Below are positions 4,788-41,874 of a stretch of 64,000 nucleotides of DNA, piece by piece. The notes beneath the pieces are model-generated. The model searched no databases, was not told where the DNA came from, and was given only the letters and a program-made list of their open reading frames with translations. Origin of the DNA: a phage; sequence record OZ346228.1; one strand, given 5' to 3'. The position numbers and the translations under genes are program-made. Each line of letters starts with the position of its first letter. Position 1 is the first letter of the stretch.

Positions 4788-5141
4788 GATGAGTACCAAC
4801 TTCAAGTCCCTGACACACCGAAGTATAAGACTGTGTACACCTTCGACACAATCGAAGAACTGGAAGCATTTAAGGCAGAGCAGGAGGCCAAACTTCATGT
4901 GTTCGACGGTCATAAGTACAAAAAGGCACGCAAGGATGAGGACGGAAACGAAGTGGTTGACAGAGACGGAAACACGGTGTACGATCCTATCCTGAACGAT
5001 GACGGAAAGCTTGAACTTATCTGGAGCCCTGTGGGTGAAATGGTGGTGCATTGCTTCTGGCAAGCTTCTAAAATGATGGGCGTCCCGTTCCAGATCACGG
5101 GTGAATACCTGTGTGGTCGTAATTGGGGTGATTGTCACTAA
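4788..5141 (+). CDS. DNA polymerase family A, exon 2
   Basis: Begins GAT GAG (DE of motif C) in frame after omega-G; C-terminus ..GRNWGDCH resembles T7 gp5 end ..GPNWAICH (from memory). Confidence 0.75.
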   Translation, partial: DEYQLQVPDTPKYKTVYTFDTIEELEAFKAEQEAKLHVFDGHKYKKARKDEDGNEVVDRDGNTVYDPILNDDGKLELIWSPVGEMVVHCFWQASKMMGVPFQITGEYLCGRNWGDCH

Positions 5142-5190
5142 TGTAAACTATCAACACATGGAAGTGTTGTTGAGCAAAGAGGAGACTTTT

Positions 5191-5475
5191 ATGGTAGTAG
5201 AACCAACAAAAACATTTACATCCATGACTATCCCTGTTATTATGCAGGTGGAGTGTGTTCAGGTATCTCAAGTGTGGCCTGGCACCAAAATCCCGACAGG
5301 GCCTGATTTCTTTCAGGTTGGCAAAGTGTACAATGTCTGGAAGGCACCAGATTGTTACCCTTTCATCAAAGATGACCGTGGGATGCTGTGGTATCTTGGA
5401 AATGATTTGACACTGCACCTTGGGAATGCTATTATTGCAGTATTCAGACTTAACAAGAAGGAGACTGATCAATGA
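5191..5475 (+). CDS. hypothetical protein
   Basis: RBS AAAGAGGAG then ATG; 4-nt overlap with next ORF. Confidence 0.5.
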   Translation: MVVEPTKTFTSMTIPVIMQVECVQVSQVWPGTKIPTGPDFFQVGKVYNVWKAPDCYPFIKDDRGMLWYLGNDLTLHLGNAIIAVFRLNKKETDQ

Positions 5476-5699
5476 CGACTTTGGTTAAAGCTACCTTTGT
5501 AGAAGAAAAGATGACAGACCTGTCATTCTTTAAAGAAGGAAAGACCTACGAGGTTTATTACGATAAAGCTCGTGCAAATAAAATGATTAAAGACGAGGAA
5601 GGGGTTGCCTGGTTTATCTCCCATCTGGCAAACGGTGAGTATCATATCTACGGAACCACCCTGCTTGCCAAGTTTGTAGCTGTTGAAGAGGACCTATGA
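5472..5699 (+). CDS. hypothetical protein
   Basis: RBS AAGGAG; ATGA-type overlap with flanking ORFs. Confidence 0.55.
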   Translation: MTTLVKATFVEEKMTDLSFFKEGKTYEVYYDKARANKMIKDEEGVAWFISHLANGEYHIYGTTLLAKFVAVEEDL

Positions 5700-5890
5700 A
5701 AGTAAAGTATCTGGCTGAGGGTATGAGTAGGTATTTCACCCTTGGTGAAGAATATTGGCCATTTACAAGCAACGGCGATGTCTACGTGAAAGATAATTTC
5801 GGCACGCCATGGTTTTTGCACCCTAACGGGTTAGGGTATTCTATTTATCGCAGTGCAATGAGCGACACAACCCTTGCAGAGTTTGTATAG
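5696..5890 (+). CDS. hypothetical protein
   Basis: Co-oriented ORF coupled to upstream gene. Confidence 0.5.
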   Translation: MKVKYLAEGMSRYFTLGEEYWPFTSNGDVYVKDNFGTPWFLHPNGLGYSIYRSAMSDTTLAEFV

Positions 5891-5900
5891 AGGAGGTAGA

Positions 5901-6272
5901 ATGTTAGTAAAAGGTACTCACACAGTCAAACAACGTATCGAAGTTGAGATCGATGACTGCGAGCTGAAGCATATTTTACGGTCATGTTCCAACGTTTTGC
6001 TCCTTAGTATTCTCCAGGAGCGAGCGGAGAACGAGTTCTTAAATGCACTGGCAGGCCGCCCTGGTGATTTCTGTGTGCGTAAGCGTGGTGACAACAAGTC
6101 ATGGCTGTGGGAGATAGACGCAGAATGGGATTACCATAAAAATGAGGGTATAGATGAACCTATTCGTGAATTGACGGACAACGAGGTTCAGATGTACAAT
6201 GAAGTTTGTCAGTGGGCAAAAAGTCAACAAACTTATCTTGATCCTTGGTGGATGATCGAAAATAGTCGTTGA
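5901..6272 (+). CDS. hypothetical protein
   Basis: RBS AGGAGG 5 nt before ATG. Confidence 0.55.
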   Translation: MLVKGTHTVKQRIEVEIDDCELKHILRSCSNVLLLSILQERAENEFLNALAGRPGDFCVRKRGDNKSWLWEIDAEWDYHKNEGIDEPIRELTDNEVQMYNEVCQWAKSQQTYLDPWWMIENSR

Positions 6273-6348
6273 CAGGAAGTAAGATTAGATATAAGATGCT
6301 TCACACAAACAGAGCGTTGATTGTTTAACACTTAAGGAGACCGCTAAG

Positions 6349-6603
6349 ATGAAAATTACTCTGAAGCCAGAATGCGTTGAAAATGACCGAGCTTTTAAAG
6401 ATTGCACAATCGGTGCAATTTATGAAGCAGAGTTTTGTGAGAACCCTTTGGTAAAAGCCCTTCTGGAAGAAGGAGCTCCTCTATCACAGGAAGAGCTTGA
6501 TGAGTTGGAAAACTCAGCACAGTGCCTTACCTTTAAAGATGATGAAGGAGACTCTGTCTGGTGCACTGTTAATGAAGTAGTTTTTGTAAAACCTGAACAT
6601 TAA
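6349..6603 (+). CDS. hypothetical Cys-containing protein (tandem paralog 1)
   Basis: RBS AAGGAG; KPECVENDRAFKDCT..TFKDDEGDSVWCT shared with next ORF. Confidence 0.6.
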   Translation: MKITLKPECVENDRAFKDCTIGAIYEAEFCENPLVKALLEEGAPLSQEELDELENSAQCLTFKDDEGDSVWCTVNEVVFVKPEH

Positions 6604-6666
6604 TGCTTGACAACAGTCATAGGGCCTACTATAATGGCCCTATCAAAACGAAAGGGGACCACAGCA

Positions 6667-6939
6667 ATGACCAAACAATATCAACGAATTAAAGCCAAGG
6701 TTAAGCCAGACTATCTGGAGAAGGACTCTGCTTTTCGGGACTGCACAGCTGACAAAGTTTACACAGGGGCCGTCCTGTTGAACGATGAACTTGAAGTAGA
6801 TATTCTGGGTAAAGAGGCCACTATTAAGGACGACCAAGGCGATTATGTTTGCTGCACCACACGTGAGCTAGAAATCTTAGAATACTTCGGTGAAATCTTC
6901 ACCTCTCTTGATGATTACTTAGATGATGAGGAAGCGTGA
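6667..6939 (+). CDS. hypothetical Cys-containing protein (tandem paralog 2)
   Basis: RBS AAGGGG; KPDYLEKDSAFRDCT..TIKDDQGDYVCCT parallels previous ORF. Confidence 0.6.
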   Translation: MTKQYQRIKAKVKPDYLEKDSAFRDCTADKVYTGAVLLNDELEVDILGKEATIKDDQGDYVCCTTRELEILEYFGEIFTSLDDYLDDEEA

Positions 6940-7328
6940 TGAAAAATATTTGGGATATCGATATCTTTGAAGCCTCTAAGCTTGATGGTGCTGATGGAGT
7001 GATTATGGTGTCTGATGGCAAAGCAACACTAACTTCCGGAGATATCATCTATGCCTTGGACGAGCTGGCGCTTCTGAAATCTACCGGTAACACTTTAGAG
7101 GAGCGTCTTCAAGGCTTCGCCTTCAAAGAAGGCACAAATACCGCCATGATGTGCACCACACGGACAGTTCAAGTTGGTAACGGTGTCTATATGATCATTG
7201 CTGTGTGTCCTAAATTCAGCAACGTCAACAAAGATGATGCTGACGCTGTCAACGATGTGGTTGTTCTCTTCGTGGGTGACGCTATGGCAGATCTGATGAA
7301 TGCAGGAGAAGCAGCAAATGAAGACTGA
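6936..7328 (+). CDS. hypothetical protein
   Basis: Start overlaps upstream stop; RBS GAGGAAG. Confidence 0.55.
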   Translation: MMKNIWDIDIFEASKLDGADGVIMVSDGKATLTSGDIIYALDELALLKSTGNTLEERLQGFAFKEGTNTAMMCTTRTVQVGNGVYMIIAVCPKFSNVNKDDADAVNDVVVLFVGDAMADLMNAGEAANED

Positions 7329-7620
7329 AAACATCACCCCCGCAGGGTTCTTAAAAGTATACCGTGAACTGCTATATACTACAGAGGACAGTGTTCTAGA
7401 GTATCCAGAATATCTTTTGCTGTATAAGTATCTGCAGGAGGCTGGTGAAAATCTGCCAGTTAGTGCAGAAGGTGGTCCGAACTGGATATACAGCGCATGG
7501 AGAAAGGTTGACATTCTCCCAGATCCGGGTAAAGATATGGTAGTTTGGCAGCTTATCAACAACATCGGGATTCCAATCTTTGATGAAGCTGTTAAAATCT
7601 ATTTTGAACTTGACGATTAA
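7318..7620 (+). CDS. hypothetical protein
   Basis: RBS AGGAGAAG before ATG at 7318 (track ORF begins 7300). Confidence 0.5.
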   Translation: MKTENITPAGFLKVYRELLYTTEDSVLEYPEYLLLYKYLQEAGENLPVSAEGGPNWIYSAWRKVDILPDPGKDMVVWQLINNIGIPIFDEAVKIYFELDD

Positions 7621-7637
7621 TATCAGGAGACCTTAAG

Positions 7638-7883
7638 ATGGCTGAAGTAGTTGCTCGCGCAGGACAGAAAGTACGTTGTGTGGAAGTAGGTTTTGGTGGC
7701 AAAGGGTGTCAAAACTTGACTCAAGGTAAGGAATACGCTGTTATTTCTGGTGGTGGCGACGAGAGTATTGTGTTCGAGGGCCACATCCTGGATGCTGAAA
7801 ACTTTGAAATCTTTGACGACGATGGAGATCCGATCACCTGCCTGCTGGACGGGAATTGGGGAACTTTCGAAGTGATTGGCTAA
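7638..7883 (+). CDS. hypothetical protein
   Basis: RBS CAGGAG. Confidence 0.55.
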   Translation: MAEVVARAGQKVRCVEVGFGGKGCQNLTQGKEYAVISGGGDESIVFEGHILDAENFEIFDDDGDPITCLLDGNWGTFEVIG

Positions 7884-7966
7884 CAAATACCTATTGTAAT
7901 TTACAGAAGGGGATGCTAAAATAGTGTCTCCTTCTATGTTGTTCAAATAAAATCGGAGATTCCATA

Positions 7967-8332
7967 ATGGAACAAATGAACGATCAAGCGTCGGTTGCGA
8001 TGAACGAGCAAGAACAACCTCAAGAATTTTTCTTAGGGTTAAGTAAAGATCAAGTGTCTCTTCTGCTAGTGCTTTCTTCTTTCATGGGAAGACTTCAGGA
8101 GCTCACACAACAGCCAGAGGCTGAACAATTATTCCAAGCTTTGCGTGAAGAAGAAAAATATCGTCGTTTGGACTATGCCTTAGGTTGGGTAGCTCAACAA
8201 CGAGATATGCTGATGGCCCTCTCTGGGACCACAAGTTTTGCAATGGGGCTGTTGGCTCAAGTTCAGGACAAATTAATTCAAGCAGGGTTTGCACACACGG
8301 CAAACACTAACGAAGAACAAGGAGACAAATAA
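7967..8332 (+). CDS. hypothetical protein
   Basis: RBS CGGAG; stop overlaps next start. Confidence 0.55.
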   Translation: MEQMNDQASVAMNEQEQPQEFFLGLSKDQVSLLLVLSSFMGRLQELTQQPEAEQLFQALREEEKYRRLDYALGWVAQQRDMLMALSGTTSFAMGLLAQVQDKLIQAGFAHTANTNEEQGDK

Positions 8333-9558
8333 TGAGCGTTATTCAACAATTCGCTAACCCGATGAATCCGCGTGAAACTGTTTTACTGGCTCACGGCATG
8401 ATTAAACGTGTCAGCATCAAGCCTATCAAAGGTGCTGATCCTACAACAGGTATTAAAACCACTGTGTGGCAAGGTAAGAAAATTGAATCCAGCCACACCA
8501 TCTCTTTACTGATTTCTGAACTGGATTCCTCTGATAACCTGCTTCAAGGTGGTGAAGAAGTTTGGATCAGCATGGGTGATAAGCTGCTTAAACCTGGTCA
8601 TCAAGACTCTGTCTCTGTTAAAATTGATGACAAGTGGGAAACCGTAACGCCGGGATGGATCGTAAATATTCCTTTGAAGGCAAACGAGCATAACGGTAAG
8701 ACCTATTACAAAGGCTCACTGGCTAAGATGGTCAAGCTGGGTGCAGGAGAGGCTCCAGCAGCGACTCAGCAGCAAAAACAGCAACAAGGTGCACAATCAC
8801 AAGGCCAGAAGCAGAAACCTCAGCAGAATGCCAATCAGGACGTTTTACGCATCTATGGTGATGTGACTCAGATTGTTGGCAACGTGGTTACTGTTAATGA
8901 CCACAAGATTGGCGAAGGTGCTATGGTTGTAACTGATGAGCAGCTTAAAGACCTGGTGGTAGGTGGTCGTGTTGCAGCCATTGTTGACAAAGACACCGGA
9001 AACATTATCAGTGGTTTCAAGGCCTATCCTCCTAAGGCAGAGAACGGCACTCAAGGCTCTGGTGGCAAGCGTAAATCCTCTTACGACCCTATCGGTGTGG
9101 AAACGGGGCATAGCATCAATGCGTTGCAGATCATCCTGGATCGCGGGTTTAAGGTAGACGACCCACTGGGCGTGGCTAAAACACTGCACGTAGTCACCAT
9201 TGAGCTTAAGAAAGAGTATGCTCAAGCCACCAACCGAGCTGAAGATGAAGTAGGTGCCAGTGTCGGTAATGCGGTGTTGAACGCTTGTCGCCGTATTGAC
9301 AAGAAAACGAAAGTTGATGATTTTGCAGTGGCAATTACTGCAGAAGCAAAAGATGTCTTGACTAATCTAGCTGAGCCGTTGTACGATTGGATCAAGAACG
9401 GTGCTGAGTCCACTGACCATCAAGAACCTCAGGCTGCCAAACAGGAAGCAGCTCCACAGCAAAACACTGTAGACGCTCCTCCTGTAAATGATGCGGAAGA
9501 TGACCCAATGGATCAGAATCCAGCACAGTACGTCTTTGATGATGACATCCCATTTTAA
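8332..9558 (+). CDS. SSB-like replication protein with E. coli SSB C-terminal tip
   Basis: RBS AAGGAG; 408 aa with Q-rich linker; last residues ..YVFDDDIPF match the E. coli SSB tail DFDDDIPF; core fold not recognisable by eye. Confidence 0.6.
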   Translation: MSVIQQFANPMNPRETVLLAHGMIKRVSIKPIKGADPTTGIKTTVWQGKKIESSHTISLLISELDSSDNLLQGGEEVWISMGDKLLKPGHQDSVSVKIDDKWETVTPGWIVNIPLKANEHNGKTYYKGSLAKMVKLGAGEAPAATQQQKQQQGAQSQGQKQKPQQNANQDVLRIYGDVTQIVGNVVTVNDHKIGEGAMVVTDEQLKDLVVGGRVAAIVDKDTGNIISGFKAYPPKAENGTQGSGGKRKSSYDPIGVETGHSINALQIILDRGFKVDDPLGVAKTLHVVTIELKKEYAQATNRAEDEVGASVGNAVLNACRRIDKKTKVDDFAVAITAEAKDVLTNLAEPLYDWIKNGAESTDHQEPQAAKQEAAPQQNTVDAPPVNDAEDDPMDQNPAQYVFDDDIPF

Positions 9559-9620
9559 CATTTAGTTAACATAGCCCTGCCAGAAAGGGTGGGGTATTTT
9601 TGTATAAGGAGATCTAAAAA

Positions 9621-10037
9621 ATGACATTAGAAGATATCATTGTTAAACCTGAGAACTATGACCAATACAACCTGTCAACTCAATCTGTAGACCTTGGATG
9701 CGCCACGGTCAGTGCGTGGCTGGTTAACGGAAAAGAGCTGGATAAATGCTTAGAAGCTCACATGTCTATTAACAAGTTTCTGGATGAAAATACTCACTGG
9801 CTTGAGGGTGCAGGAGTATATGCTTCATGGTTGGAAAGTATGGGATTCGACTACCAATCTGAAGAAGGGTGGTGGAGCTATTTAGCTATCTGCCCAGAGA
9901 CGCTGCAATGCTTCATGAAATATTCTGAAGATTTGGAGTACCGGGCGGTGGTTGATAGTGCTATTGCCCGTTATAGCCGTAAACCTTTTTCCCACGACAT
10001 TAAAACTGTGGAAGAGTTTGTTGAAGTTTTCTGTTGA
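9621..10037 (+). CDS. hypothetical protein
   Basis: RBS AAGGAG. Confidence 0.55.
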   Translation: MTLEDIIVKPENYDQYNLSTQSVDLGCATVSAWLVNGKELDKCLEAHMSINKFLDENTHWLEGAGVYASWLESMGFDYQSEEGWWSYLAICPETLQCFMKYSEDLEYRAVVDSAIARYSRKPFSHDIKTVEEFVEVFC

Positions 10038-12774: not shown

Positions 12775-13100
12775 CAGAGATCATCATTTCAACTGCAGGG
12801 TATGTATTCCTGACAATCATTGCACTGGCTATTTTGGTGACAGTGTATGGGTTTGTTATCCTTCCTATCCTTGAGACATTTAGTTTGTGTCGGTGTTGGA
12901 GAAAAGCTTACGGTCCACAACCATGGAAGGACTGGCCCCACCTGGTGCGCTTAGCGTTCTCTTATGCTTACGATCACTCCAGTAGTGCATGCATAACCGG
13001 ATACCACGCCCACAACTGGAGCTGGGAAGGGTTGAGGAAATGGAATGTTACAAAGACCATACCTCTGCGCATGTACAAACCTAAAAACAAAGACAACTGA
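12771..13100 (+). CDS. hypothetical membrane protein
   Basis: RBS GGGGAGG; N-terminal hydrophobic helix, Cys/Trp-rich tail. Confidence 0.5.
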   Translation: MTEIIISTAGYVFLTIIALAILVTVYGFVILPILETFSLCRCWRKAYGPQPWKDWPHLVRLAFSYAYDHSSSACITGYHAHNWSWEGLRKWNVTKTIPLRMYKPKNKDN

Positions 13101-13104
13101 TACT

Positions 13105-13620
13105 TGAAAATTCCTGGCATATCAAGTATAAGGGGGATTTCTAAAATGGATTTCCTCCTTTTGATATTTCACCGGGCTGGATATTTTAAAATTCTTAGAA
13201 AATCAGAAAATGGATCGAAAACTAAAATGGATTTTTCAGAGTAGGCGCGACAAGCTGAATAACTCATCCTATCGTTTGCACCATATTCCAGGCCACCATT
13301 ATAGATTTCCCACACATGCTAACCTCTCCCTACTAGAACTTCCTCCACTTACCCTTGACCTTCTATGGTAACAATCTAACCGCTATCTTGAAGTTGCGGT
13401 GCAGCTTTCCAGGTACTCGATCTACTTTTCATTTCAGGGCTTGGATTTTCTGAAAATTTTTCTCGATAAATTTCTCAGTACTCGATCTGTTTTTCGTTTT
13501 CTGAATCGGATTTTCTGGAAATCGTTCCGGCTCTCAACCTGAAATTTTTGGGGACGAAATCGATTTTTCGTTTTCAGAAATGGATTTTTAAAATTTCTAT
13601 ATGGGAATATTTTAGTGGAT
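13105..13620. repeat. Non-coding repeat region (iteron-like direct repeats)
   Basis: No credible ORF; AAAATGGATTT x3, GTACTCGATCT x2 inside two ~55-nt direct repeats, GGATTTTCTGRAAA x2. Confidence 0.5.
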
Positions 13621-13704
13621 ACTGTTTTATAGGAAATTGTTACGGAGGGTAATTAGCATGCTAATTAAATTTATTAAATGCGAGGAGTTCTCATTTAGAA
13701 TTTT

Positions 13705-13870
13705 GAATGATAATCATTCTCGTTTGCAGAATAACGGGCAGGCCCGGTGATTGTCTCCCGGCCCCTGTTGCCCCGGCTTGTTATTATAGTATCACACAGG
13801 ACAAAGAAAGCAAGGACTTTTTGCATAAATTTTTAAATGATAATGATAACCGTTCTCATTTTATGCAGCG
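13705..13870. promoter_or_regulatory. Two Fur-box-like palindromes, each followed by a GC-rich tract
   Basis: GAATGATAATCATTCTC (13705-13721) matches about 15/19 of the E. coli Fur box GATAATGATAATCATTATC; second copy AATGATAATGATAACCGTTCTCATT at 13845-13870. Confidence 0.35.
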
Positions 13871-14283
13871 CCCATCCCCGGTGGTTGTCTCCCCCGTCAC
13901 CGGTGCCTGCCGTCCTTTCGATATGTATATTGTGCCACCTGGCGGGGCCGCTGTCAACACTTTTCAAAAAATTTTTCTAACCTGGTGCGCTAACCGTTGC
14001 AACCTGGCGGGGCCAGCCTGGCAGGACCTAACTGACCAGGTAGGGGAGAATGAAGGCTTGTAAACCTGGTGGGCCTATGCTACAGGATAGGTAACAATTG
14101 AAGAGGAGGTACAAAAATGATATGATCCCCCTGGAAAATGTAGCTATTAATGACTCTGAGGCTATCGCCCTGGTTGAAAAGGCTATGGCGGGAGCGTTGG
14201 AACATAAAGAAGAGTACGAAAATGGTGGTTAACCTGGCGGGGGCGGCAGGTGGATTCTATCATAAAAATAATTTAAAATAGTA

Positions 14284-14313
14284 GTTGACAACAAGGTTAA
14301 TCATGGTATTATT
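14284..14313 (+). promoter_or_regulatory. sigma70-like promoter
   Basis: TTGACA -35, about 17-nt spacer, ATTATT -10. Confidence 0.45.
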
Positions 14314-14362
14314 ACCCTACAAGGTGAACAACACCGCACTAACCAGTAAAGAGGATAAATTT

Positions 14363-14560
14363 ATGAACGCATACGGGATCAAAGTACGTCGCAACACTCG
14401 CCAGGTGGTCACCAATCAAGTGATTTGCCGGGTGGATGTAACCATCAACAACGGGCAAGGCCTTTATAAATTTCGTCGCGGTCATAGCTATACCCTGCAA
14501 CAGCTTAATCGTTGCGCCCTGACAAAAGGTCAGATCAACCACTGGTTTAATAAAAAATAA
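14363..14560 (+). CDS. hypothetical protein
   Basis: RBS AAGAGG; downstream of promoter. Confidence 0.55.
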   Translation: MNAYGIKVRRNTRQVVTNQVICRVDVTINNGQGLYKFRRGHSYTLQQLNRCALTKGQINHWFNKK

Positions 14561-14564
14561 GTAT

Positions 14565-14593
14565 TGACATACAGTCAGACACCAAATACACTA
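14565..14593 (+). promoter_or_regulatory. sigma70-like promoter (weaker -10)
   Basis: TTGACA followed at 17 nt by TACACT. Confidence 0.4.
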
Positions 14594-14624
14594 AAAGCAC
14601 AAAAGACACTAAGAGGATAAAATC

Positions 14625-14810
14625 ATGAAAACCACTACCTTTAATTTTGATAATGCAGACTTTTCTTTTTCTGATGTCAAGAACTGCCGCCGTGATCGTG
14701 GATTTTACAAGGCTTATAATCTGGTGGGCCTGGACGATGACAATAATTTGCACGAAGTAGCTGAGATCCAGCTTGACAGATTGGACGGGAAAGTACTAAA
14801 AACTTATTGA
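14625..14810 (+). CDS. hypothetical protein
   Basis: RBS AAGAGG. Confidence 0.55.
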   Translation: MKTTTFNFDNADFSFSDVKNCRRDRGFYKAYNLVGLDDDNNLHEVAEIQLDRLDGKVLKTY

Positions 14811-14811
14811 G

Positions 14812-14858
14812 TTTATTTTTAGATGGCCTTGACACCAGGGCCATCAATAAAGTAAACT
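14812..14858 (+). repeat. Conserved post-stop intergenic element, copy 1
   Basis: TTATTTTTAGATGGCCTTGACACCAGGGCCATCAATAAAGTAAAC; 7-bp stem GATGGCC/GGCCATC around TTGACA. Confidence 0.6.
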
Positions 14859-14890
14859 AACCACAGTTGAGCGGAAAAGGAGGCTTAAAG

Positions 14891-15010
14891 ATGAGCACTA
14901 CACGCCAGCACACAAAGGTAACCATCATCGTTTGCATCATTGGGTACATCCTGGCGCAAATGTTGATGGGTAGCGCCAACGGTGTCGCAAAATTTTTCTT
15001 AAACTTTTAA
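14891..15010 (+). CDS. small hydrophobic peptide (39 aa)
   Basis: RBS AAAGGAGG; predicted TM helix VTIIVCIIGYILAQMLMG; below the ORF-track cutoff. Confidence 0.4.
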   Translation: MSTTRQHTKVTIIVCIIGYILAQMLMGSANGVAKFFLNF

Positions 15011-20938: not shown

Positions 20939-21984
20939 AAGCACATAGCCGCCAGATCTCAGAATTTACGTACGCTCACCAGTCTATAGCCTGCTAAGTA
21001 TTTATTCCAACCATAGAATAACGGAATAGTCAATACCTGCATAAAATAATTATTCGTGTAAACTGCATAACATAAATCGGCTAGGATGTCAACATTTTTC
21101 GTAAACAGCTCGAAATTATAACGGTGAGTTATAATAAACAGAGAAATCTTTAGTCGTCTAATGTTTACTGTACATTACTATACTGACTGGAATCATTAGA
21201 TGACTAAGAGAAAGATAAGAAATCATTAACAATGCAATTGTTTTATTCGTAACAATAAGGCAACTATGCAAACGGATGGCATGGCGCGACGGAGTCGCGA
21301 CATAATATAAAAGCAGTAACCATCACCCCCGTGATAGTTTGTCTGCAAACTATTAATCAGATCATAGTTGCCTTGTATTTAGTTAATCATGACATAACAA
21401 GCAAGGCAACTATAGATCTGCTAATAGTTGCCCTGCTTTTATATTATGTCATAGATTATTAGCCTGTTAATTGTTAGTCAGTCAAATCAACAACGTTATC
21501 ATTTCAGTCTTTATTGTTGTTGATCGTTATTGTTATCATGCAAACGAATGGCATGGCTTATCATTTTTGAGTAAACAATCTATACGTGAACAGTGAGGCA
21601 TGCAATAGTAAGGGCGGGAATAATGAGAGTGTAAACTGTCAGGCATGTCAATTATATCAATCGTGTCAGTTATGTCACCATTATGTCAGACAAGTTTTTC
21701 TCCTCTTTGTCAAGTGCTGCATGAAAAATTTACAATCTTGTATGGTAGCATTTTTGCGGCCCTGTTTACATTCAGTATTGTATGTATAATCCTTGTTGTG
21801 TGGGCGTTTAGACGTCTAGACGGTCAGAAGTCTGCAGGTTAATATCTAATCTATCGGCTGCTAACTATATCCCACACAAATAGTAAGAAATATAATTGTT
21901 ATGTGCGTAAACAGTAACTCATGTTATCAATCCCTGTATGTATCGCCAGTGGTGCGCATAATGGGTATTATGTTAAATTGCCCG

Positions 21985-22128
21985 TAATGATAATGGTTCT
22001 CACAATGATAGGTATTCTCATTCCCCCACACAAAATAGATTGCAAATGTTGTGCCACTATGTGAACGGCCTCACCTATTAATTTGCCTCACTGCCTCGAT
22101 ATTTGAGAATTATCATAAGAATGAGAAG
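21985..22128. promoter_or_regulatory. Further copies of the Fur-box-like motif inside the 2.2-kb non-coding region
   Basis: AATGATAATGGTTCTCACAATGATAGGTATTCTCATT and inverted GAGAATTATCATAAGAATGAGAAG. Confidence 0.3.
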
Positions 22129-23125
22129 TATTCCCATTTCGTCCGCCTGGCAGCACTCCAGTCGCTACGGCTCAGAACAGGGCAGAATTGTGTCCATTCA
22201 GATATTTCTGTCTGGCTCTTCAGGTCTGTGTGGGAAAAGTCCACCTCTCTGGCGGGGCATGGGGTCATGACGGGAAAATTGCAGGTCAATTAAAAAATTT
22301 ACGTGGTGTATGAAGCGCTCTTCAGGTAAGGCATGTATTATGGGATGAAACCCTCTTCAGGCAATGATATTTGTGGGTGTGATATTTGCTGGAAAGCCAG
22401 ATATGACGGGACTCCCGGCGGGGCAGGGGTAGTACAGACAGGGGAAATATGGAGGATGTGGTTAGGTGAATTGATCAGACAGGTAGAGTATGGAATATGT
22501 TACAGGTATGTTAAATAGGGCGGCTGAATATCTGTAGGATTTGTGTGTAAAATCAAAGACTTAAGTGGTGTTGTGGTATTTTCTATAAATAATTCAAGTT
22601 TAATAGGTAATATTTGTCTCTATTCGCTTTGTGTGGTAAACAGATTCAGATGAGATTGGTTTACAAGCGTATACATAATATACAAATTAAAGATACAAGA
22701 AACCCCCCTCCCCCTTCGGCTACCATTCACCTTTTCCTCTGACTGGTACTTAAACACTTATTCAGACTCTTCAGGTTATCACCCATATATCATATGGCAG
22801 TGACTGGTGTCCTCCGGCCCCTCTTTCGTCACCCGTCCGCTTCGCCATGCTAATGCCATAGCCAATGGTTCGGTTGTTCACCCTGTTCACTCAGGTGTAT
22901 CTCCATACCCCTTCAAAACGAAGAGAACAGAAAACCCGAATTACTCGGTAAAAGAAAAGAGAAGAACTTAATTTTATCAGGATAGGCAAGAATGTCAAGG
23001 CATGACTGCTCACTAAACAAGCAAACAGTCATGTGTGGGAGGTAAGTGATTGTGGTGGTAGGAAATTTAGTTGAAAGATGTGTTATAGGTGCTTCCAGCA
23101 CTTTAGCCGGGCAGCTAATTGTGTG

Positions 23126-23675: not shown

Positions 23676-24035
23676 GTTCCACCCGTGAGTATTCCGGCAA
23701 CAGCTGCTATGGACGTAATGATCATCAGGATCACCACTAAAACTTCGGACAATGTTCTCATTGTGTACTCCATATTCTACAAACTATGTGTGGATACTAT
23801 CACTGGATCGGTAATGTGTCAACAGAAACGCCGCGAGGGTTTGGTTAAAATCCGAGCGTATGGTGATTTGGGTCAAAACGGACGTGCGTTCTCGCTACGC
23901 TCGAAAGAGAGATTTGTTTGTAGGAAGCTCTTAAACGCTCTGTAATGAGATTATCTGTCCAAGGTATGCAATCGTGCACCAGATAAAGAAAAGGACGCCA
24001 CAGAGCGTCCTAGGTGTCTTAAATTTGATATTTTG

Positions 24036-38953: not shown

Positions 38954-40216
38954 TCAGCAACCACAACTTCCGTAGTGCTTAACTCGCTCGATAACTTCCG
39001 CTTGCTTACCTTTATTGTAAGGACGGGAGTTAGGACTGGAAAGGTATCCAGACACACGTCGAATTACACTGATCGTTCCCTCTTCATGGTTTCCACACTC
39101 TGGGCATACAAAGCCTTTAGCTGTTGCACTGAACTCACCAGAGAAACCACACTTGAGACATTTATCCACAGGTTGGTTAATACCAAAATACATAATGTGT
39201 TTATACCCGAAGTCAACAAGAGCCTCTAAAGCATCCAGGTTGTTTTTCAGGTTAGGTGTTTCTACGTATCCGATGTTGCCACCAGAGGATATCATAGCAA
39301 AACCTTCTTCATACTCCCACTTATCAAAAGGAGAGCTATTGATCCATACTGGCTGATGGAAACTGTTGGTGAGATATTCATGCTCGTGCTTCAACACTTC
39401 AGGATATTCACGATCCAGACAGGTTGCAGCTTTATAGCATAGACTCTCAGAAGGGGTGCCGTACAAACTAAACGCTAGTCTACTTTTCTTCTTGTATCGC
39501 TCACAAGCATCTCTCATGTGCTGAAGTATTCCAAGAGCTAAAGCCTTGTCACCCTCTCTGCCCAAAATCTGACAGGTTTCATACACACCAATATACCCAA
39601 TACTGATGGAAGCGTACCCGTCATAGAAGAGTTTATCAATACTCTCTTCAGGATCCAGGCGAGCAAGAGCGCCTTCACACCACATGATAGGGTTCTGCCC
39701 TGCCTTAGTGCCTTTCAGACGGTTAACCCTTACAAGGTGAGCTTCATATGCCAAATCCAGATACTCGTCAAGAACGGAAAAGAAATCAACACCTTCCGTC
39801 TTAGCTTTTGCCGCAATCATTGGCAGGTTAAGACTAACAACACCCAAGTTGAATCTGCCGAGGTATTTCTCCTCACCTGTTTCCAAGTCATTGTATTTGC
39901 TAAGAAAACTCCGGCAACCCATGCTCGTTACTTTACCATCTGTCGAGCCTGTCACTTTACGATTTAGTGGAACAGAAACAAAGTCAGGATAAATCCGCTC
40001 TGCAGAGCATTCCAGAGCTAATCGTTTCAAATCATAGTTAGGATCTCCAGGGTTCATGTTGACACCCTCTTCTAGGAAGAACAACACTTTAGGGAACACA
40101 GGTGTGATACGTTCTTCACCAAGACCCATTTTGTGGACTTTCAAGTAGTTTTTGGTAATCATTCTACCAAAGACTGAGGTGTCCAGACCTAAACTTAATG
40201 TGATGAATGGAGTCTG
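38954..40216 (-). CDS. nrdD: anaerobic ribonucleotide reductase NrdD, exon 2
   Basis: QTPFITLSLG.. continues from exon 1; C-terminal CPECG zinc site and glycyl-radical motif RRVSGYL. Confidence 0.8.
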   Translation of the reverse strand, partial: QTPFITLSLGLDTSVFGRMITKNYLKVHKMGLGEERITPVFPKVLFFLEEGVNMNPGDPNYDLKRLALECSAERIYPDFVSVPLNRKVTGSTDGKVTSMGCRSFLSKYNDLETGEEKYLGRFNLGVVSLNLPMIAAKAKTEGVDFFSVLDEYLDLAYEAHLVRVNRLKGTKAGQNPIMWCEGALARLDPEESIDKLFYDGYASISIGYIGVYETCQILGREGDKALALGILQHMRDACERYKKKSRLAFSLYGTPSESLCYKAATCLDREYPEVLKHEHEYLTNSFHQPVWINSSPFDKWEYEEGFAMISSGGNIGYVETPNLKNNLDALEALVDFGYKHIMYFGINQPVDKCLKCGFSGEFSATAKGFVCPECGNHEEGTISVIRRVSGYLSSPNSRPYNKGKQAEVIERVKHYGSCGC

Positions 40217-41013
40217 CTGTCTCCTCCCTGTGTTTCCACAGGGCCAGACTATCTCTTACTCTACTTCAATAAGATAATAACCCTTTATTGTGAGATGCTT
40301 ACCTTCGGCATTTCCTTCGATAGCCCTATGAACGTTACCTACGTTCAAATTTAAGGCTTTTGCACAGGCATAGAGTGAAGGATATTCACCCACCAAGGTT
40401 TTACCTTTGTATGCCTGCACTTTCCTATAGCACTTACCTGGACAAAGTCCTGTTCGGAAAGCATGTCTCTTATTATCTTCCGGCAAAACCCACTCTAGGT
40501 TAGACGGATGATCATTCAATGTATTGCCATCTTTATGATTCACTTCCCAGTTTTCAGGGTCTTCTGGGACATCCGGCAAACAATACAAGGCAACAATCCT
40601 TGAGGTTTGGATTCGAATCTTTTTACCTTTGTGGTTGAAAGAGTACATATAACGGCGTTTAACATGCTTGTTACCTTTTCCATAACCTCCCCACAATATT
40701 GGGTGTAGCATTCCACGTTTTCCGTATACGTTTCCAACCTCATCAATCACATAGTTTGATTCTTCACCATTAAGAATGATCTTTTTCATAGAGCCTCTCC
40801 ATTTCGAAGTTAGTATTTCAACTAACCCCTACACTACTTGGTTCAGAAATGTTTGTCAAGCATTTCTGCCTTTCGTTAGTCGTTACAACCGTTCCAACTC
40901 CTGTAAGAACTAGTCACGGGATTGGCATAGCTTTCGCCTTAGCGTTCCCCGTTAGCCGGATTTACCGACCCCTCTTATGAGGTTAGGAGAGTTTTACAAC
41001 GGCCAGTTTGTTA
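40217..41013 (-). mobile_element. Group I intron in nrdD
   Basis: On - strand: exon 1 ends on U; AACGGGGAAC, CAATCCCGUG, CGACUAACG (P7 5'), GAGAUAGUCUGG (P7 3'), P9 hairpin CCCUGUG-GAAA-CACAGGG, terminal G. Confidence 0.75.
40256..40789 (-). CDS. HNH homing endonuclease, intron-encoded
   Basis: HNH motif EVNHKDGNTLNDHPSNLEW; inside nrdD intron. Confidence 0.8.
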   Translation of the reverse strand: MKKIILNGEESNYVIDEVGNVYGKRGMLHPILWGGYGKGNKHVKRRYMYSFNHKGKKIRIQTSRIVALYCLPDVPEDPENWEVNHKDGNTLNDHPSNLEWVLPEDNKRHAFRTGLCPGKCYRKVQAYKGKTLVGEYPSLYACAKALNLNVGNVHRAIEGNAEGKHLTIKGYYLIEVE

Positions 41014-41874
41014 ACCGTTGACAGAAGTTAACGTGTTGATTTGATAGAGCAAAGTCTGCATGCTGTCAAATACGTCTTTATCTGTCATTTGCATTGCAAC
41101 AGTTTCAGCATCCGGCAACCAATGTTCCTGGCAAAATTTAAGGTTCTTCTCATAGGTTGCTTCAGCATACTGTGCCAGATAATGATCAATATGGCTCATA
41201 GTCTGACCACCATATTGAGCACTAGCTACCGCACTAGAGATTTGGCTAAGGATTGTTGTTGCAACCCCTATTGACTTCGGCTTACTGACATGGGCGTTAC
41301 CAATGTTGAATCCGTTTTCCAACATATCTGGATAATTTACCAAACAACAGTTTGTTAACGGACTGATCAAGTAGTCAAGATCATGCACATGGATGAATCC
41401 TTTATTGTGCTCTTCGGAGACACGGTCTGGCAGGATCTGTGTTGATGCAAGGTGTTTGCTAAGAATACCTGCAAGCAGGTCGCGATGAGTGTGTACATGA
41501 TTAGTAGGCTTATTTGCGTTTTCTTTTGTAAATTCATCACAAGTTCGATCCAAGAAGCCACTAATATCTGCAAGCAGTTTTCCACCTGCCTCTCTGTTAT
41601 TATCTCTTGTCTGTCTATACTGGATGTATTCTCTGGCTGCACATTTTAAACCCATATCCATAAGAGCATCTTCAACAAGGATATGGATATTTTTTACAGA
41701 GATCGTGCACTGGTCGGTTGGTAGATTGTTAGCAACAACTTCATTAACCGCGCAGGCGATCCGGTAAGCTTCTTCTTCAGTATGTCCAGACTCAAGTAAG
41801 GCGGACTCTGCCGCCTTGATCACCTTAATTCCGTTATAGAACTCTTCTCTACCGTCCCGTTTTACAACTTTCAC
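41014..41874 (-). CDS. nrdD: anaerobic ribonucleotide reductase NrdD, exon 1
   Basis: ATP-cone-like start MKVVKRDGREEFYNGIKV; GFIHVHDLDY..TNCCLVNYPDMLENGF; ends ..NTLTSVNG at splice site. Confidence 0.8.

Follow-up and report, generated by a model that had tools for sequence, protein, structure and literature searches.

Fur-box-like palindromes in two gene-free regions of an rV5-like coliphage

The stretch of phage DNA considered here (64,000 nucleotides of sequence record OZ346228.1, referred to below as the window) comes from a Vequintavirus (rV5-like), and the elements of interest are palindromes resembling the Fur box, the operator of the host iron regulator Fur, that lie in two gene-free regions. 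A search with positions 13000-15000 returned 124 matching phage records, nearly all of them Vequintavirus, with Escherichia phage EdH4 as the top match (99%). Genes run on the plus strand up to approximately 24 kb and on the minus strand thereafter; the first products of the plus-strand block are a DnaB-like helicase and a DNA polymerase of family A, and the minus-strand block codes for NrdA, NrdB, a split NrdD, PhoH, ThyX and a ligase. The first cluster of palindromes (cluster 1) sits in a gap of about 750 bp (13372-14121), marked merely as a 'non-coding' box in the rV5 genome paper, and the first real gene to its right starts at 14122, preceded by a GAGGAGG ribosome-binding site. The second (cluster 2) lies inside the direct terminal repeat (Table 1).

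Two clusters of palindromes at the level of Fur operators

A preliminary description of this DNA had noticed a Fur-box-like palindrome ahead of the early genes, and the palindrome itself is real: GAATGATAATCATTCTC, at 13705-13721, matches the consensus GATAATGATAATCATTATC at 15 of 19 positions when its flanks are included, with the inner 13 positions perfect. Across the window, this consensus is matched best at 13839-13857 (16/19), followed by 13703-13721 and 30465 (15/19 each). The best match is the second copy that had been placed 140 bp downstream of the first; it does exist, although the spacing is 136 bp, and the two additional copies announced for 21985-22128 turn out to be three sites (21986, 22004 and 22120). 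With up to three mismatches allowed, the 17-mer has four matches in the window against 0.32 expected, recurring at 13841 and 21985. Each box of cluster 1 is indeed followed by a GC-rich tract, as had also been observed; the boxes and the AT-rich DNA around them contain 26-28% GC, compared with 60-64% in these tracts.

The weight matrix with which the sites were scored, a check that the preliminary description had itself proposed, contains no phage sequence at all. It is a symmetrised, 19-bp matrix, built by consensus-seeded iteration from 11 promoters of E. coli K-12 MG1655 (fhuA, fepA-fes, fepD-entS, fepB-entC, fecI, fecA, cirA, ryhB, tonB, fur and exbB), and rests on the 11 sites so chosen. 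The six sites of the two clusters rank first to sixth in the 64 kb, in the order 13706, 13842, 13836, 22004, 21986 and 22120 (scores in Table 1). At 15 bits or more, six sites are seen where first-order Markov simulations predict 0.74, and all six fall within the two clusters. For comparison, the E. coli sites score 7.5-24.3 bits in leave-one-out tests, the palindromes of the phage being on a par with ryhB and fhuA; boxes A and B keep 20-22 bits once the three E. coli sites whose half is ATTCTC are taken out of the matrix. These numbers bear directly on the most sceptical explanation, namely that the boxes are chance palindromes of AT-rich DNA without any function. The region is AT-rich and repeat-rich, and a weak matrix match is to be expected every few kb; this explanation nevertheless has to contend with the gathering of the top six sites in two clusters, with the invariance of 15 of the 19 columns of box A among lineages whose flanks are 25-50% identical, and with the recurrence of the sites in all relatives, and its probability appears next to negligible.

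Table 1. Coordinates of the features discussed in the text (window numbering)
Feature	Position	Strand	Sequence and remarks
Fur box A	13706-13724		AATGATAATCATTCTCGTT, 24.3 bits; matrix scan; 17-mer of the preliminary description: 13705-13721
Fur boxes B' and B	13836-13854 and 13842-13860		20.4 bits (B') and 22.7 bits (B); overlapping, shifted by 6 bp
Fur boxes C and C'	21986-22004 and 22004-22022		17.1 bits (C) and 17.2 bits (C'); end to end, within the terminal repeat
Fur box D	22120-22138		16.4 bits; in a hexamer array at 22105-22138: GAGAAT TATCAT AAGAAT GAGAAG TATTCC
Direct terminal repeat	21689-22147		459 bp; physical end at about 22147; from alignment to the Gotham repeat
Weak candidate rightward sigma-70 promoter	13703-13732	+	TTGAAT 13703-13708, 18-nt spacer, CAGAAT 13727-13732
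Predicted promoter P_L(A)	13783-13813	-	-35 TTGCTT 13813-13808, 19-nt spacer, -10 TATAAT 13788-13783; reads through GC-rich tract A into box A
Predicted promoter P_L(B)	13929-13959	-	TGTTGACA, 17-nt spacer, CACAAT with TG; 10/12 with TG
GC-rich tract A	13725-13782		64% GC; conserved blocks TGCAGAATAACGGGCA and GGTGATTGTCTC (13746-13757)
GC-rich tract B	13861-13928		60% GC; GGTGGTTGTCTC at 13880-13891
AT-rich segment	13589-13705		27% GC, 117 bp; degenerate Fur-like box at 13677-13695 (10.8 bits)
Three iteron-like direct repeats	13403-13588		47-57 nt each, at spacings of 65 and 74 bp; core CTCGATC...TTTTC...GGATTTTCTG; left part of the gap
GC-rich 13-mer repeats	13936-14244		AACCTGGCGGGGCC at 13936 and 14001, variant at 14063, and 14231; right of the modules; also at 22250

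How seriously should the departures of the phage boxes from the consensus be taken? The mismatches seen in the preliminary description are explained by the E. coli operators themselves, since the ryhB box (AATAATAATCATTCTCATT), the exbB box (which ends in TCGTTCTCATT) and the fhuA box (which contains ATAATCATTCTCGTTT) carry the same variants. The 16-mer ATAATCATTCTCGTTT is common to box A and the fhuA box, the phage box AATGATAATCATTCTCATT is one base off the ryhB box, and the phage boxes share with these three operators both the 19-bp 9-1-9 palindrome and the ATTCTC half-site. Further afield, the published Xanthomonas Fur consensus AATGAgAATcATTctCATT (PMC1790865) is the box of CR3 and of the Salmonella phage, and the variant AATGAGAATCATTCTCATT occurring in relatives is identical to that consensus letter for letter. 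Clustering with 6-bp shifts is another trait by which the phage sites resemble chromosomal ones, for which overlapping Fur sites shifted by 6 bp have been described (PMC2189734); such an overlap is present at 13836/13842 in the window and likewise in phAPEC8, in the CR3 type and at loci L132 and L138. By sequence, then, the boxes stand at the consensus or matrix level of validated operators and occur as overlapping sites or within a hexamer array. Unlike the E. coli operators, they reside on a virulent phage with no iron gene downstream, relative to the best-supported promoter they lie some 50-85 nt beyond its predicted start and not across its -35/-10 elements, and their second cluster is placed within a terminal repeat.

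The ATG inside box A is the start codon of an open reading frame (ORF) at 13707-14063 (plus strand, 118 aa) that had been suspected of being spurious. This suspicion is well founded, because the frame is not conserved in relatives: from the same ATG it runs for 40 aa even in EdH4, which is 99% identical, for 92 aa in FFH2, and for 6-7 aa in L137, the Klebsiella phage and phAPEC8.

Surroundings of the boxes: promoters, origin-like layout and DNA end

The preliminary description had placed the boxes ahead of the early gene block. Control of that block by the boxes is not supported: the block owns near-consensus promoters at 14285 (TTGACA-16-TATTAT) and 14564, and the better-supported promoter in the vicinity of the boxes points toward the box. 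Nor does 'ahead of early genes' describe the second cluster, which lies in the terminal repeat at the physical end of the DNA. Among the ten ORFs of the downstream early block that were tested, no iron-related gene was found, all ten being of unknown function.

Two kinds of candidate promoter adjoin box A. The rightward one scores 8/12, with box A filling its -35 element and spacer, and the A at its position -11 is lost in 4 of 14 relatives. In 10 of 11 lineages, by contrast, the two best hits on the minus strand include a promoter with its -10 element at +82 to +87, counted from the first base of the box. In those ten, the -35 element is invariably of the TTG type, the -10 element is TATATT-like, and the spacer (16-17 nt, or 19 nt in the rV5 group) is variable in sequence; the distance between box and promoter is nearly constant across lineages. 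These minus-strand promoters, termed P_L, are the better supported by comparison among relatives; hexamers that are conserved around a spacer free to change are what a real promoter should show. The module of cluster 1, read on the minus strand, would accordingly consist of P_L, a GC-rich leader of approximately 45 nt with the invariant GGTGNTTGTCTC, and a Fur box at about +50 to +85. In sequence, P_L(B) is of the family's early-promoter type and similar to the consensus published for early promoters of Certrevirus, AAAA(N3-4)TGTTGAC(N17-19)TATAAT (PMC7344957), yet it is opposed to the direction of the surrounding genes. The motif TGTTGAC-N16-20-TANNNT is found 18 times in the window (0.86 expected), in 17 cases co-oriented with the surrounding genes; the single match that is not lies at 23794-23824.

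Beyond the two tandem modules lie 117 bp of 27%-GC DNA and then the three iteron-like repeats; comparable repeats (GGTCTCGATCG...GATCGTATTCTC) are visible by eye at the same place in CR3 and in the Klebsiella phage. Tandem promoters that read into AT-rich DNA beside iterons suggest an origin-like layout, the features that bear on it (the repeats at 13403-13588, the 27%-GC segment at 13589-13705 and the leftward P_L(A) and P_L(B)) being features of sequence only. The primary origin of T7 is likewise composed of tandem promoters followed by AT-rich DNA; the promoters here are of the host sigma-70 type. GC skew in the window tracks the direction of transcription only, and the skew analysis in the rV5 paper was similarly uninformative, and no origin could be defined there; consensus sites for DnaA and IHF are absent from 13300-14200. 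The AT-rich segment also carries a perfect 16-bp palindrome, AATTAGCATGCTAATT, at 13651-13666, which is kept across the rV5 group. To the right of the modules, the GC-rich 13-mers AACCTGGCGGGGCC, to which a repeated GCCCGCCGGGCCG in CR3 is analogous, are possible binding sites for a phage protein.

The placement of cluster 2 follows from phage Gotham, for which terminal repeats of 459 bp and a fixed start of packaging have been published (PMC7471380). Its annotated repeat, present at both ends (1-459 and 136567-137025), aligns to 21689-22147 of the window at 95.9%, and two more records begin at the same base. Since the Gotham repeat maps in this way, boxes C and C' lie 126-162 bp, and box D 10-28 bp, from the physical end, which is where a terminase site, at or near a genome end, would be looked for; cluster 1 is roughly 8.3-8.5 kb away. 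The sites of cluster 2 are kept in Gotham, naswa, Alma and D1, C' being identical in all four, and the variation of box C among relatives is confined to central, low-information positions.

These two settings invite the idea that host Fur serves as an architectural accessory, much like IHF, in the initiation of replication (cluster 1) and in terminase action or end processing (cluster 2), with iron sensing being secondary. An IHF site lies in lambda cosB, and cluster 2 similarly adjoins a cut end in gene-free DNA. The origin-like character of cluster 1, with tandem promoters directed into 27%-GC DNA and iterons in a phage that encodes a DnaB-like helicase and a family A polymerase, the position of cluster 2 within some 10-162 bp of the physical end, and the boxes found upstream of terminase genes in other phages (see below) all agree with this idea. 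Against it speak the failure to find a mapped origin for the family, skew being uninformative in the rV5 paper and in the window alike, and the lack of DnaA and IHF consensus sites in 13300-14200. Fur is not known to play an architectural role, of the cosB kind or any other, and we regard this explanation as distinctly improbable.

The gene-free region surrounding the terminal repeat (20940-22330, 1.4 kb) contains further elements: repeats of the ATAGTTGCC type, a hairpin on the minus strand that resembles a terminator (21339-21318) and, on the same strand, several promoter-like sites, one of which (GTGACA-16-TATAAT, 21678-21651) lies immediately beyond the terminal repeat. Within the terminal repeat itself, the tandem 8-mers AGACGTCT AGACGGTC AGAAGTCT at 21810-21833 match a triple MetJ metbox at 20 of 24 positions (the best of 30 simulations reached 17), and the perfect first metbox-like 8-mer is kept in Gotham, naswa, Alma and D1. 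The array may also be no more than a 9-bp direct repeat, TAGACG(G)TC. Among 13 host regulator consensuses tried, only those of Fur and MetJ rose above chance; matches to the LexA, CRP, FNR, PhoB, ArgR, TrpR, PurR, Zur, TyrR and CpxR consensuses stayed at chance level.

Other identities for the locus were considered and rejected. A tRNA-Met and a tRNA-Ile are annotated over the homologous module of the Klebsiella phage OY978796, where ARAGORN and Rfam find none; the same searches of the window gave no tRNA and no Rfam family above chance. A structured RNA can be dismissed too, given folding energies of the GC-rich tracts that are not unusual (z-scores from -0.94 to +0.90) and no covariation on either strand; in the alignment of the minus-strand transcript, RNAalifold (-4.65 kcal/mol) returns the box hairpin and a 3-bp stem only. 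Using tblastn, no homologue of Fur was detected in the window or in any Vequintavirinae record. Capture from the host is equally unsupported: 13660-14000 has no similarity to the E. coli genome at E values up to 1, and only the 16-nt identity with fhuA remains. Elsewhere in the window, NrdD is distributed over two ORFs on the minus strand (41011-41874 and 38954-40162, region 38954-41874), and its being split around a third, 40256-40789, suggests an intron or the insertion of a homing endonuclease.

Conservation among relatives and recurrence in viral contigs

How far does the arrangement extend beyond this phage? In the complete genome of the relative D1 ('Campylobacter phage D1', 137,167 bp, classified as Vequintavirus FFH2), all sites of at least 16 bits fall in the same two gene-free regions, and its B box is a better variant, AATGATAATCGTTCTCATT, of 24.7 bits. 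Approximately 17-19 records titled 'Campylobacter phage' (MG065646 and others) are Vequintavirus genomes; the host label 'Campylobacter' is doubtful because these records are more than 90% identical to the present coliphage. Outside the rV5 group, a sensitive blastn search with the gap finds only the box A stretch, at 70-87% identity, in phAPEC8-like phages, Klebsiella and Proteus Mydovirus, Cronobacter Certrevirus, Salmonella phages (PVP-SE1-type) and Pectobacterium CB7. The hosts of the genera in which the boxes are conserved all possess the same Fur.

An alignment was assembled from the loci of these blastn relatives and nine more from a viral contig collection. Among eight lineage representatives, box A has a mean pairwise identity of 91.9%, with 15 of 19 columns invariant and flanks at 25-50%, which makes it the most conserved non-coding block across the lineages compared; the second such block is GGTGNTTGTCTC, at 86.9% identity. 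The number of sites at this locus, with scores of 18-26.7 bits, is between one and five in every lineage examined, and Certrevirus and phAPEC8 have arrays of four boxes, 27-37 bp apart. Other genera additionally contain a highly conserved GC-rich element of approximately 95 nt (CTACCGGCGATCCACC...GCCCCGCCTTTTCGCCGTGGGGTGGCG; L009 2655-2745, L006 2675-2765, L007 220-305 and L008 2705-2785). Two CTTTACAA repeats stand before this element and a second minus-strand promoter (TTGACG-17-CATAAT) after it, and it has no match in Rfam; it is missing from the window, its position there being occupied by module B.

The varying number of boxes brings up the possibility that they act by dosage. According to this explanation, hundreds of replicated genomes with six strong sites each would titrate Fur and de-repress host iron uptake for the benefit of the phage reductases, the position of the boxes relative to promoters being incidental. 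E. coli contains some 5,000-10,000 Fur monomers per cell, and approximately 1,000 strong sites would be a relevant load. The free variation of box number between one and five among genera, the location of every site in gene-free DNA, the NrdAB and NrdD encoded by the phage and, as part of a general repressor-decoy idea, the MetJ-operator-like array in the terminal repeat all fit such a sponge. A pure sponge, however, has no need of the distance and orientation of box A relative to P_L and GGTGNTTGTCTC, which are near-fixed in all lineages, and de-repression of the host would require that host transcription and translation continue late into infection. We consider the sponge improbable as the principal explanation.

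A scan of the viral contig collection with the pattern AATGAKAATCATTCTC yielded at least 120 loci (L010-L129), and the numbers that follow apply to the matches listed from it. Bases outside the pattern are non-random, position 17 being A in 125 of 136 and position 6 being G in 109 of 136; a G at position 6 completes the perfect palindrome TGAGAATCATTCTCA, which occurs in more than 120 viral contigs. The matches fall into at least 94 groups that are unrelated at the DNA level and often form arrays of 2-10 sites in non-coding DNA, with two or more sites of at least 16 bits at no fewer than 62 loci. A T4-type large terminase is encoded at 21 of the loci, and at every one of these the boxes are situated 0.5-2.5 kb upstream of its gene; boxes are found near contig ends at about twice the expected frequency. 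This pattern fits the terminal position of cluster 2, but it is not independent evidence, because the 21 phages share related terminases and because repeats can break assemblies. Only the terminase recurs as a common phage gene beside the arrays, and the promoter geometry around the contig boxes amounts merely to the general enrichment of promoters in intergenic DNA. The presence of the motif in so many unrelated viral contigs may nonetheless mean that the phenomenon is a general one.

Is it then necessary to invoke Fur at all? The palindromes could be read by a DNA-binding protein of the phage that is not a relative of Fur, such as an early repressor, a replication initiator or a small terminase, their likeness to Fur boxes being mimicry or coincidence. 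In keeping with this, the ATTCTC right half is strongly preferred and TTCTC occurs in neighbouring repeats as well, cluster 2 is situated where terminase recognition sites are expected, the palindrome is always upstream of terS and terL in the 21 contigs just mentioned, and tandem arrays with a spacing of 27-37 bp recall phage operators or cosB layouts. An operator specific to the phage should drift from genus to genus, however, whereas all lineages examined, and no fewer than 94 unrelated groups of viral contigs, keep to the consensus of host Fur; moreover, a 24-bit match by coincidence is very unlikely, sites overlapping with a 6-bp shift are a Fur trait, no protein family beyond the terminase is shared beside the arrays, and the window and the Vequintavirinae records contain no homologue of Fur that tblastn could detect. 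A phage protein as the reader of the boxes thus seems to have a low probability.

Probable Fur binding and what it might do for the phage

To judge from their letters, boxes A and B are very probably bound by E. coli Fur in vitro, since they stand no farther from the consensus than the boxes of ryhB and fhuA do. That binding would also be a selected function is argued for by conservation across genera, by the confinement of the strong sites to two regulatory regions and by the constancy of the motif. With moderate confidence, we favour the view that the palindromes are genuine operators of host Fur that are kept by selection, and that Fur would gate transcription from P_L and in this way tie the control region to the iron status of the cell. 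What follows from binding is at the same time the less certain part: gating of transcription, licensing of replication or packaging, and a sponge are all consequences to which binding might lead.

In the gating scheme, Fur-Fe2+ would sit on the boxes in an iron-replete cell and would there gate RNA polymerase on its way from P_L to the AT-rich DNA and the iterons, possibly also repressing the weak rightward promoter that overlaps box A. Both the origin-like early control region and the DNA end would thereby be coupled to the iron status of the host. A rationale for such a coupling may be that the phage's own reductases, NrdAB and NrdD, need iron. The scheme as proposed assigns neither the sign of the Fur effect nor its output, which might be an RNA, the initiation of replication or packaging.

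Several observations sit uneasily with this view. The right half of the phage boxes is nearly always ATTCTC or ATTCGC, whereas the majority of E. coli sites have ATTATC, which could mean a different reader, although the ATTCTC half is present in 3 of the 11 E. coli sites as well. The arrangement that would be classical for Fur (TTGAAT-18-CAGAAT over box A) makes a weak promoter that is not well kept among relatives, and P_L itself is a prediction; the literature search brought up neither a transcriptome nor a promoter map for these phages. A box at +50 to +85 is away from the classical position over the -35/-10 elements, and repression by a Fur roadblock would be unusual. Finally, the number of boxes ranges from one to five between genera, which is as compatible with an effect of dosage, or a sponge, as with one of position.

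It is also conceivable, if unlikely, that Fur acts primarily as a licensing or architectural factor for phage DNA, at the origin and in the terminal repeat, or that the genomes function as sponges for Fur and MetJ. Licensing would amount to an iron checkpoint, of which the arrays upstream of terminase genes in unrelated contigs would be another instance of the same strategy, while in the sponge variant Fur, and perhaps MetJ via the metbox-like array, would be sequestered in order to reprogramme the iron and methionine supply of the host.

How would gating by Fur compare with what is known of other phages? Fur boxes on temperate phages steer cargo, as exemplified by the sit operon on lambdoid phages (PMC6969025) and by stx1 (PMC5552940). 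These are likewise host Fur sites on phage DNA, with the difference that they serve bacterial-type cargo in a lysogen, whereas here they belong to the control region and DNA end of a strictly lytic phage without a cargo gene. The literature search found Fur boxes only on such prophage cargo (sit and stx1), none in control regions of lytic phages, and no paper that links Fur with rV5-like, PVP-SE1-like or phAPEC8-like phages. Lytic phages are no strangers to the co-option of host regulator sites, with PhoB boxes and NtcA sites in cyanophages and LexA boxes in several phages as examples. Here too, a lytic phage would read a nutrient-sensing regulator of its host through conserved operators; in contrast to these cases, the regulator here would be Fur, the nutrient iron, and the sites do not front identifiable metabolic genes.

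Taken at face value, the six Fur sites in the control region and the terminal repeat suggest that the phage reads or manipulates the iron status of its host. If this is true, the rV5-like phages would be, as far as we could find, the first strictly lytic family of enterobacterial phages shown to read a metal sensor of the host, and the gene-free region so far labelled just 'non-coding' would be given a function. These virulent phages, whose site of action is the iron-poor gut, are widely used in biocontrol of E. coli O157 and in therapy. Should Fur prove to be wired into their control region and DNA ends, the efficiency of infection would depend on the iron status of the host, which would matter both for the conditions of therapy and for the media in which the phages are produced.

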